DNA of 64,000 bases from an uncultured Gemmatimonadales bacterium (GCA_963697755.1 CAVOPE010000007.1:38973-102972), one strand, 5' to 3'; shown: positions 62,055 to 63,815, numbered from the stretch's first letter. Program-made: numbers and translations. The notes: generated by a model not told the origin, from the letters alone.

Positions 62055-62604
<550 letters not shown>

Positions 62605-62641
62605 TACGCGAGAGTACCGCCGATGGGGTAGACGAGCAAGG

Positions 62642-63334
62642 TTAGCCCGCGGTCGCCTGGCCGAAGACGTCCGCCTGCGGGTCCCAGAACGCGTCGTGAA
62701 GTCCGACCCGGCCAAAGATCCGGCGCATCTCGTCTGGAGCCGGGCGCCGGGCATCCGGCTCCAGCCGCGTTGCGTACCACGCCACGGCCAGCTCCCAGAG
62801 CTGGCTCATCCGCACGAGCGGCCGCGGCGGCACGCTGCGCGCCTCGCACCACACTTTCACCTGTTCTTCCGACCGGAAGAAGAGCATCGCGCTTCAGGTG
62901 AAGACGAGATCCTCCCACCAACGGGCTGCCGGCACCAGACAGTGAAACAGCCAGGTGCTGGGCTCTGGACCAGCGATGCCGACCTCCAGCCGGAGCGGTT
63001 CGCCCGACTGCCCGCAGCGCGAGCGAACGACCCCGTCCTGGTGGAGCGCGGCTGGGATGCCGAGCGCGTCCCAGGCACAATTGGCGAAGTAGGACCGGCG
63101 GCCGACCTCGACGATATGCTGGGTGGGAACCCCGGAAAACGGAGGCGCCATTCGGATGGCCTCGCCATCGGGCTCGAGCAGCAGGACGCGATCGGCCCGC
63201 AGTCGTGCGTAGGTCTCCCGGACGTCCTCGCGGGAGCAGCCAAGCGGCCCCGCCACGTCGCCGAGCTCCGGCGGCTCGCCCGTTCTTGCGAAGTGGCGAT
63301 ACACCGCCAACTTCACTTGCGTCTCGAAGTCCAT
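62642..63334 (-). CDS. MerB-like organometallic lyase, probable selenoprotein (in-frame UGA at 62896-62894), 230 aa
   Basis: N-terminal HTH-like domain, FANCAWDAL (MerB CxxD), then DLVFT-UGA-SAMLFFRSE in one frame; SECIS-like hairpin follows the UGA. Confidence 0.8.
62861..62893 (-). promoter_or_regulatory. Bacterial SECIS-like element
   Basis: After the UGA: 12 nt, then stem UUCUUCC, loop GGUC, stem GGAAGAA. Confidence 0.7.
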
Positions 63335-63356
63335 TGGCGCCTCATTCGGCGCTGCA

Positions 63357-63815
63357 TCATCGGGCCCGGCGCAAGCGGGTCAGCACGCGGTCCAGTGACG
63401 CGGCGAATGCCCGCTTGGTCTGGGCGTCGTAGGGCGGCGGCCCGCCCGTCACCATCCCGGAGAGCCGCGCCTGCTCCATGAAGTCCCGCACCGAGAGCCG
63501 CTCTCCGATCGTGTCGGCGGTGTGCTCCTCGCCGCGCGGGTCGAGCACGGCCACTCCCTTGGGGACGAGCTGCGCCGCCAACGGCACATCCTGCGTGACC
63601 ACGAGGTCGCCCGCGTCGACGTGGGCCGCGATGTACTGATCCGCCACGTCGGCGCCGCCATCGACCCGGACGGCACTGACCAGCGGATTCCCGGGCGGCG
63701 TCTGCAGCCGCTGGTTCGCGACCAGGACGACCTCCACTACGAGTCGTTTGGCCGCGCGGAACACCAGGTCCTTCACGTCTCTCGGCGCGGCATCGGCATC
63801 CAGCCAGATTCTCAG
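63357..63815 (-). CDS. YaiI/YqxD (UPF0178) family protein; apparent CTG start
   Basis: RIWLDADAAP, LVANQ, DVADQYI, DLVVTQDVPLA and GGPPPY. Confidence 0.88.
   Translation of the reverse strand: MRIWLDADAAPRDVKDLVFRAAKRLVVEVVLVANQRLQTPPGNPLVSAVRVDGGADVADQYIAAHVDAGDLVVTQDVPLAAQLVPKGVAVLDPRGEEHTADTIGERLSVRDFMEQARLSGMVTGGPPPYDAQTKRAFAASLDRVLTRLRRAR

Follow-up and report, generated by a model that had tools for sequence, protein, structure and literature searches.

A predicted stand-alone MerB-fold selenoprotein, cut at its UGA codon by annotation, in soil bacteria of many phyla

Introduction

It is established for MerB that an aspartate protonates the leaving carbon, and environmental surveys normally count MerB-type demethylation through mer operons and full-length merB calls. 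A MerB-like selenoprotein, SaoL (NF040728), has been described from Clostridioides difficile and other anaerobes, where it is part of the SAO locus; its CU motif lies about 50 residues from the C-terminus, its locus comprises nine genes and is found in anaerobes only, and other metals are stated to bind at the site of MerB itself (Haft and Gwadz, bioRxiv 10.1101/2022.07.06.499078). In the available portions of a 2026 review of prokaryotic selenoproteomes and of a 2022 review, SaoL is the only MerB-related selenoprotein. The texts of BSepDB, deep-Sep and Peng 2016, supplementary tables aside, contain neither 'MerB' nor 'mercur', and full-text literature searches brought up no second MerB-related selenoprotein family, although one may be listed in supplements.

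Here we analyse a gene in the genome of an uncultured Gemmatimonadales bacterium, within a stretch of 64,000 nucleotides (GCA_963697755.1 CAVOPE010000007.1:38973-102972; hereafter the window). A sequence-only reading of the window had proposed that two ORFs conceal a single stand-alone MerB-like lyase, in which the second catalytic cysteine is selenocysteine (Sec).

Results

A MerB-like gene interrupted by one in-frame UGA

Both ORFs are on the minus strand and share a frame: one of 146 aa at 62894-63334, which ends in TGA, and one of 81 aa at 62642-62887. Only TGA (62894-62896), AGC and GCG separate them, exactly as the sequence-only reading had it. This TGA is the sole in-frame TGA of 62642-63334. 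Translation of TGA as U gave 230 residues including ...YFANCAWDALG... and ...WWEDLVFT-U-SAMLFFRSEE..., thereby reproducing the joined protein with the ANCAWDAL and WWEDLVFT-U-SAMLFFRSEE motifs that had been pieced together earlier. The features of the gene are as follows.

62642 to 63334, minus strand: whole coding sequence of the predicted Sec-containing MerB-like protein, 230 codons, from ATG (63334-63332) to TAA (62644-62642).
62894 to 62896, minus strand: UGA codon 147, predicted Sec, opposite the catalytic Cys159 of MerB; the TGA column is kept, with Cys in full-length relatives.
63068 to 63079, minus strand: codons TGT GCC TGG GAC of Cys86-Ala87-Trp88-Asp89, equivalent by alignment to MerB Cys96...Asp99.
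62864 to 62881, minus strand: SECIS hairpin, starting at UGA +12 nt, with synonymous-site conservation, pairing and compensatory changes.
63340 to 63343, minus strand: GAGG, Shine-Dalgarno-like, 5 nt upstream of the ATG, as read from the sequence.

Positions 62894-62896 are unchanged in contigs from three DNA runs belonging to three studies; in run X5, an 802-nt contig spans 62823-63600 with a single change, located elsewhere than the TGA. Run X1 may derive from the sample of origin. For the upstream DUF188 gene, TGA serves as an ordinary stop (63357-63359). RNA run X15 gave contigs in the RibD_C gene (62400-62605) but none on the lyase-like gene, for whose expression this run is uninformative. 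The same interval, the 5' part of the RibD_C gene, was matched at 90-99% identity by very many contigs of soil runs, one RNA run included, and is therefore common to many related organisms.

The host genome encodes the selenocysteine machinery

The host genome (4.55 Mb in 14 contigs, 91% complete, contamination estimate 3.8%) was searched for selA, selB, selC and selD, and all four are there. The tRNA-Sec gene (selC) scored 67.5 bits and was assigned the anticodon tca by ARAGORN, while selA (503 bits), selB (284 bits) and selD (368 bits) all exceeded their cut-offs in the genome profile search. Of 36 genomes sampled within the genus, 34 have selA.

The genome encodes tRNA-Sec twice, at C1:78224-78321 (minus strand) and at C12:28-124 (plus strand); the two genes are 94% identical, and the DNA adjacent to them is 73% identical between the two contigs. 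Contig C12, 18 kb long, may be DNA of a related organism that was binned in, or a diverged duplication. ARAGORN also called a permuted tmRNA of 706 nt at C8:715703-716408, besides a standard tmRNA at C14:315723-316087; the 706-nt call may be a false positive.

The UGA is conserved and has cysteine counterparts

Ten further genomes of the genus (a count that includes the unpublished genome G003, used only as one more TGA-form genome) carry the gene at 37-73% identity, each with TGA at the same column. A pattern scan over GTDB, with one genome per species, matched at least 600 stretches, of which at least 584 were confirmed; TGA occupies the column in 80 of the best 80 confirmed loci. A scan of JGI metagenomes, seeded with three Cys-form sequences (alignment A5), returned at least 598 stretches with at least 446 confirmed, and the best 80, in which the TGA was inspected, comprised 79 TGA and 1 TGC. 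Among the sampled loci Sec forms greatly exceed Cys forms in number, at 79 TGA to 1 TGC in the best 80 metagenome loci.

Cysteine stands at the Sec column in all 19 Cys-form rows of a 73-row family alignment (A3, 54 Sec and 19 Cys rows), and likewise in the mer-operon paralogues L031, L032 and L034. The residue preceding U or C in A3 is T in 67 rows, A in 5 and P in 1. Among the best 150 representative database relatives, 65 reach at least 195 aa, and many read ...T-C-x-T.... Homologues with Cys or UGA at this column, which the sequence-only reading had named as a check, were found in the genus, in GTDB, in metagenomes and among database relatives. Three full-length database relatives (P0002, P0125 and P0132) have W at the Sec column, probably because TGA was read as Trp when their genes were called and not because they are real Trp variants.

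The median dN/dS was 0.230 for codons 148-224 versus 0.234 for codons 1-146 (300 random pairs from 62 loci), and was 0.240 past the UGA when the hairpin codons were excluded. Purifying selection acts equally on the codons that follow the TGA and on those that precede it. One relative within the genus, in G017 (L030/L033, contig C12:2808-3457 of that genome), has a 1-nt deletion a few bases past the TGA that puts its C-terminal part out of frame, reflecting either a pseudogene or an assembly error.

A conserved hairpin follows the UGA

The hairpin UUCUUCC/GGAAGAA with a GGUC loop, previously noticed 12 nt past the UGA, is indeed there and is conserved with compensatory changes. Its 5' arm UUCUUCC (62881-62875), loop GGUC (62874-62871) and 3' arm GGAAGAA (62870-62864) form a stem of 7 bp. 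The hairpin is present in the minimum-energy fold, with an energy no better than that of shuffled sequences (z -0.47 for 81 nt and z -0.22 for 45 nt); since folding energy alone is not significant, the case for it rests on conservation and covariation, both of which are strong. Across 80 loci, the stem codons for the first and second Phe both read UUC in 80/80, and CGG, UCG and GAA are kept in 79/80, 77/80 and 72/80, versus three or four different letters at third positions outside the stem. In an alignment of 89 rows (86 distinct), 98.3% of 602 cells are paired, compared with 45-72% when the 3' partner is slid.

Compensatory change was seen at two of the seven pairs in the 89-row alignment: the closing C-G is replaced by A-U in L079, L084 and L096, the last of which encodes Arg-Ser by AGG-AGU and not by CGG-UCG, and the basal U-A is replaced by C-G in four rows. 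In the metagenome locus L170, the closing pair is U-A in place of C-G. The 17-nt hairpin core occurs once in the genome, and the SECIS is among the most sequence-invariant parts of the gene. Because the FFRSEE motif is itself conserved, part of this nucleotide conservation reflects protein constraint. On the metagenome contig L171, the sole Cys-form (TGC) among 160 wide loci, FRDDEH replaces FRSEE after the Cys; the DNA reads CGG GAC GAC GAG and the hairpin is gone, in this single Cys-form DNA (n=1).

An additional lower helix, in which ACCUG (taking in the UGA) would pair with CNGGU, was considered and rejected, with 71% of cells paired and no convincing covariation. An Rfam search of the hairpin region matched no family and gave only two chance miRNA matches (E 5-9). 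In the E. coli fdhF element, a bulged U is an important SelB determinant, and the loop G and U also take part in SelB binding. The K-12 record confirmed the earlier statement that GGUC occurs in the fdhF loop: the apical GGUC lies at +22 to +25 there and at +23 to +26 here, whereas the stem described here is a perfect 7-bp helix without a bulged U.

The product is predicted to adopt the MerB fold with Sec at a catalytic position

The joined protein matches the Pfam MerB family (PF03243) at 100.9 bits (E 6.3e-29), above the gathering cut-off of 27 bits, with residues 66-187 aligned to profile positions 1-125 of 126. Among NCBIfam models, the MerB equivalog spans residues 6-192 at 54.3 bits against a cut-off of 193, and both canonical models, NF009710 and NF033555, are missed (54.3 versus 193 bits and 49 versus 200 bits); the best E-value to canonical MerB models among the 73 family members is 1e-18. 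No model of NCBIfam release 20 is approached by any of the 73 members. A sequence search of the PDB placed MerB2 (5c17, E 6.5e-8) at the top, followed by MerB.

In the alignment to 3f2g and 5c17, U147 falls opposite MerB Cys159, and Cys86 and Asp89 fall opposite Cys96 and Asp99, so that two of the MerB catalytic positions are there as Cys86 and Asp89 and the third is encoded by UGA. [quoted passage not shown] The AlphaFold2 model, built from the 73-row alignment, has a pLDDT of 96.1 and a pTM of 0.92. In a Foldseek comparison against the PDB, all 11 matches with E up to 0.001 are MerB or MerB2 chains (TM 0.57-0.71, target-length normalised), followed by weak matches to the winged-helix regulators LexA, DtxR/IdeR and MntR (E 0.04-0.2).

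C86, W88 and D89 are invariant in 9/9 rows of the Sec-form alignment A1. In A3, C86 is present in 72 and D89 in 62 of 73 rows; 10 of the 11 departures from Asp89 fall among the 19 Cys-form rows and the 11th is in a row unassigned to form, so Asp89 is kept in at least 53 of the 54 Sec rows. The residues found in place of Asp89 are Cys in six rows (giving CxxC), E in two, and G, N and S in one each. Such replacement in the Cys-form branches hints, at the level of sequence, at different chemistry or metal binding. By analogy with MerB, the product would be a cytoplasmic MerB-fold enzyme of 230 residues with the putative triad Cys86/Asp89/Sec147. We consider it very probable that the protein is a true selenoprotein of MerB fold; organomercurial lyase activity as such, which the likeness to MerB suggests, we hold to be slightly more doubtful than probable.

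The gene is widespread across phyla and is truncated by annotation

By record title, the best 80 GTDB loci carry at least 11 phylum labels, namely Gemmatimonadota, Acidobacteriota, Verrucomicrobiota, Chloroflexota, Eisenbacteria, Planctomycetota, Ignavibacteria, Calditrichaeota, Omnitrophota, Bacteroidota and Alphaproteobacteria, and several of these loci sit on contigs of 1-4 Mb. In a quick maximum-likelihood tree (IQ-TREE), the family, with its 54 Sec and 19 Cys rows, and the mer-operon MerBs of the genus fall on opposite sides of a branch supported at 99%. Phyla are interleaved inside a cluster of 43 Sec rows, which in this quick tree fits horizontal transfer as a single gene. The same tree implies at least four changes between Sec and Cys, of which the starred branches force only one. 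The sequence-only reading had placed the novelty of the gene in its lineage and context; with at least 11 phylum labels it is no oddity of one lineage but a very widespread family.

Among the best 120 database relatives, 118 stop at the TGA as 146-residue products, entered as 'hypothetical protein', 'Alkylmercury lyase', 'organomercurial lyase' and the like, bearing out the suspicion that automated annotation splits the gene. The same gene, cut at the UGA by annotation, is present in hundreds of soil bacteria of many phyla.

The gene stands alone and the host genome lacks mer genes above cut-off

The gene begins 22 nt past a DUF188/YaiI gene and ends 37 nt ahead of a RibD_C gene, all on the minus strand, with a Bestrophin-like gene as a further neighbour. 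A search for a conserved neighbour in the 80 GTDB loci found no cluster of non-overlapping ORFs in more than 6 of the 80. Neither a DUF188 nor a Bestrophin-like gene was found adjoining the 16 remaining genus loci or any of the 80 wide loci, and a RibD_C gene is near in 2 of the 80 wide loci. An apparent cluster of downstream membrane genes in 42 of 80 loci was discarded as overlapping out-of-frame ORFs that single linkage had joined to a handful of real genes. Only three of the 80 loci (L069, L076 and L078) are followed by a DUF1440-like gene, which in L087 lies 2.9 kb off.

The earlier observation that merA, merR, merT and merP are absent from the window extends to the whole 91%-complete genome, in which no MerA, MerT, MerR or MerP scored above its NCBIfam or Pfam cut-off; the best MerA match reached 373 bits against a cut-off of 454. 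Within the genus, MerA exceeds the cut-off in G009, G022 and G023. The TGA form occurs in 11 genomes of the genus, of which G022 alone has MerA over the cut-off, on a different contig. A classical mer cluster is present in G009, where contig C370:40225-46706 encodes MerA (569 bits, over the cut-off) followed by two Cys-type MerB paralogues (L031 and L034) within 5 kb; G009 has no Sec-form copy.

Discussion

We consider it likely that the locus is one gene encoding a MerB-fold Sec enzyme that cleaves a carbon-metal(loid) bond outside any mer operon, and that the gene moves between phyla on its own. For Sec insertion, catalysis, substrate and the fate of the metal product we infer the following course. 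At UGA147 the downstream hairpin would bring in SelB with Sec-tRNA(Sec), Sec would be inserted and 83 more codons translated. By analogy with MerB, the Sec147 selenolate and the Cys86 thiolate would then bind the metal of an organometallic compound, and Asp89 would protonate the leaving carbon, cleaving the carbon-metal(loid) bond. As substrate, the default guess is methylmercury or another organomercurial, and the metal would be released by some route without MerA. As there is no MerA to take Hg(II) off a Se-Hg adduct, mercury turnover is uncertain, and so is the choice of substrate. The most specific form of the proposal, an as yet undescribed, widespread family of soil selenoenzymes acting as mobile stand-alone Sec organometallic lyases on methylmercury or other carbon-metal(loid) bonds with no mer operon, is put forward tentatively, as a possibility that we rate below the lyase activity itself.

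Several other explanations were weighed against a Sec-containing lyase. The strongest of them, though improbable, is a MerB-fold selenoprotein that is no lyase and uses its Cys/Sec ligands for binding, trafficking or sensing of soft metals (Hg, Cd, Cu, As), with an N-terminal winged-helix-like domain that might act in regulation. It would fit the lack of MerA or any other conserved partner to strip tightly bound metal, the weak winged-helix matches below MerB in Foldseek, and the binding of other metals by MerB at its site, as stated in the SaoL report (bioRxiv 10.1101/2022.07.06.499078). It would also fit the Cys-form relatives, which often have C, E, N, S or G at Asp89, so that not every branch of the wider family needs the proton donor. 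The Sec forms, however, keep the catalytic positions including Asp89 (9/9 in A1, at least 53/54 in A3), and canonical MerB, which is an enzyme, has the same N-terminal domain, its model spanning residues 6-192. Far less credible is that the TGA is a true stop and that the 146-residue protein assembles with a re-initiated 81-residue protein, leaving no residue at the Cys159 position. Public gene calls do give the 146-residue product, and 79 of the best 80 GTDB loci have an ATG at +9 to +11, directly after the TGA and two codons, with which re-initiation could also fit. Yet the Sec-form loci L104, L027, L028 and L029 have ATC or ATT in place of this ATG and hence no start codon, the two codons in between encode residues that Cys forms also have there (S/G/A, then T/N), and full-length relatives carry Cys exactly at the TGA column; nor would a true stop account for the GGUC hairpin, placed as in fdhF, or for the full set of Sec genes. 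An error of sequencing or assembly, or a pseudogene, we regard as the least probable explanation of all, one already refuted within the reach of sequence data: the G017 relative with its deletion just past the TGA speaks for it, but TGA recurs at 80/80 and 79/80 independent loci (the best 80 of each longer list), which excludes a sequencing error, contigs of three runs from three studies show it unchanged, and both halves of the gene are under purifying selection.

Equally to be weighed is orthology to SaoL, a reading that we find a shade less credible than a true stop. The two proteins share the PF03243 fold, Sec at the MerB Cys159 position and the Cys...Asp pair, database entries that end at the UGA and the lack of a classical mer operon, and the SaoL model weakly matches 70 of the 73 family members (best E 2.3e-19). 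However, NF040728 reaches only residues 32-118 of this protein, at 43.7 bits against a cut-off of 140, the motif is T-U here and C-U in SaoL, and 83 residues follow the Sec here versus about 50 there. SaoL belongs to a nine-gene locus (SaoB, SaoC, SaoP, SaoT and others) of strict anaerobes, whereas the present gene stands alone, with no SAO neighbourhood or any other conserved neighbour, in soil MAGs under at least 11 phylum labels (among them Gemmatimonadota, Acidobacteriota, Verrucomicrobiota and Chloroflexota). Profiles of SaoB and SaoC found no match in the genome, in a search in which the control genomes were silent too. The earlier link to SaoL therefore holds for a MerB-like selenoprotein and fails for an orthologue.

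If the predicted lyase is active, surveys of mercury or organometal detoxification potential in soil miss an enzyme, the known selenoproteomes of Gemmatimonadota, Acidobacteriota, Verrucomicrobiota and Chloroflexota fall short, and the 18-nt SECIS, which hardly varies, can serve as a simple marker with which to find and correct such genes. Current annotation is blind to the family because its copies are cut at the UGA. The family also provides a natural Sec/Cys pair for asking what selenium contributes to carbon-metal bond cleavage. Should the lyase reading be true, organometals would be turned over by a route so far overlooked, and soils would hold a major use of selenium that has likewise gone unrecognised.

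Taken with canonical MerB (EC 4.99.1.2; PDB 3F0O/3F0P, and MerB2 5C17), the protein shares homology over the whole length, the predicted fold and filled positions of the triad, but it has Sec for Cys159, is roughly 20% identical and scores under the equivalog cut-offs. Its host genome is without merA, merT, merP and merR over cut-offs, and the mer cluster of the genus (G009 C370) uses separate Cys-type MerB paralogues. Judged by cut-offs, motif and context, the sequences thus appear to form a distinct, very widespread, stand-alone clade of Sec-containing MerB-like proteins, neither canonical MerB nor SaoL.
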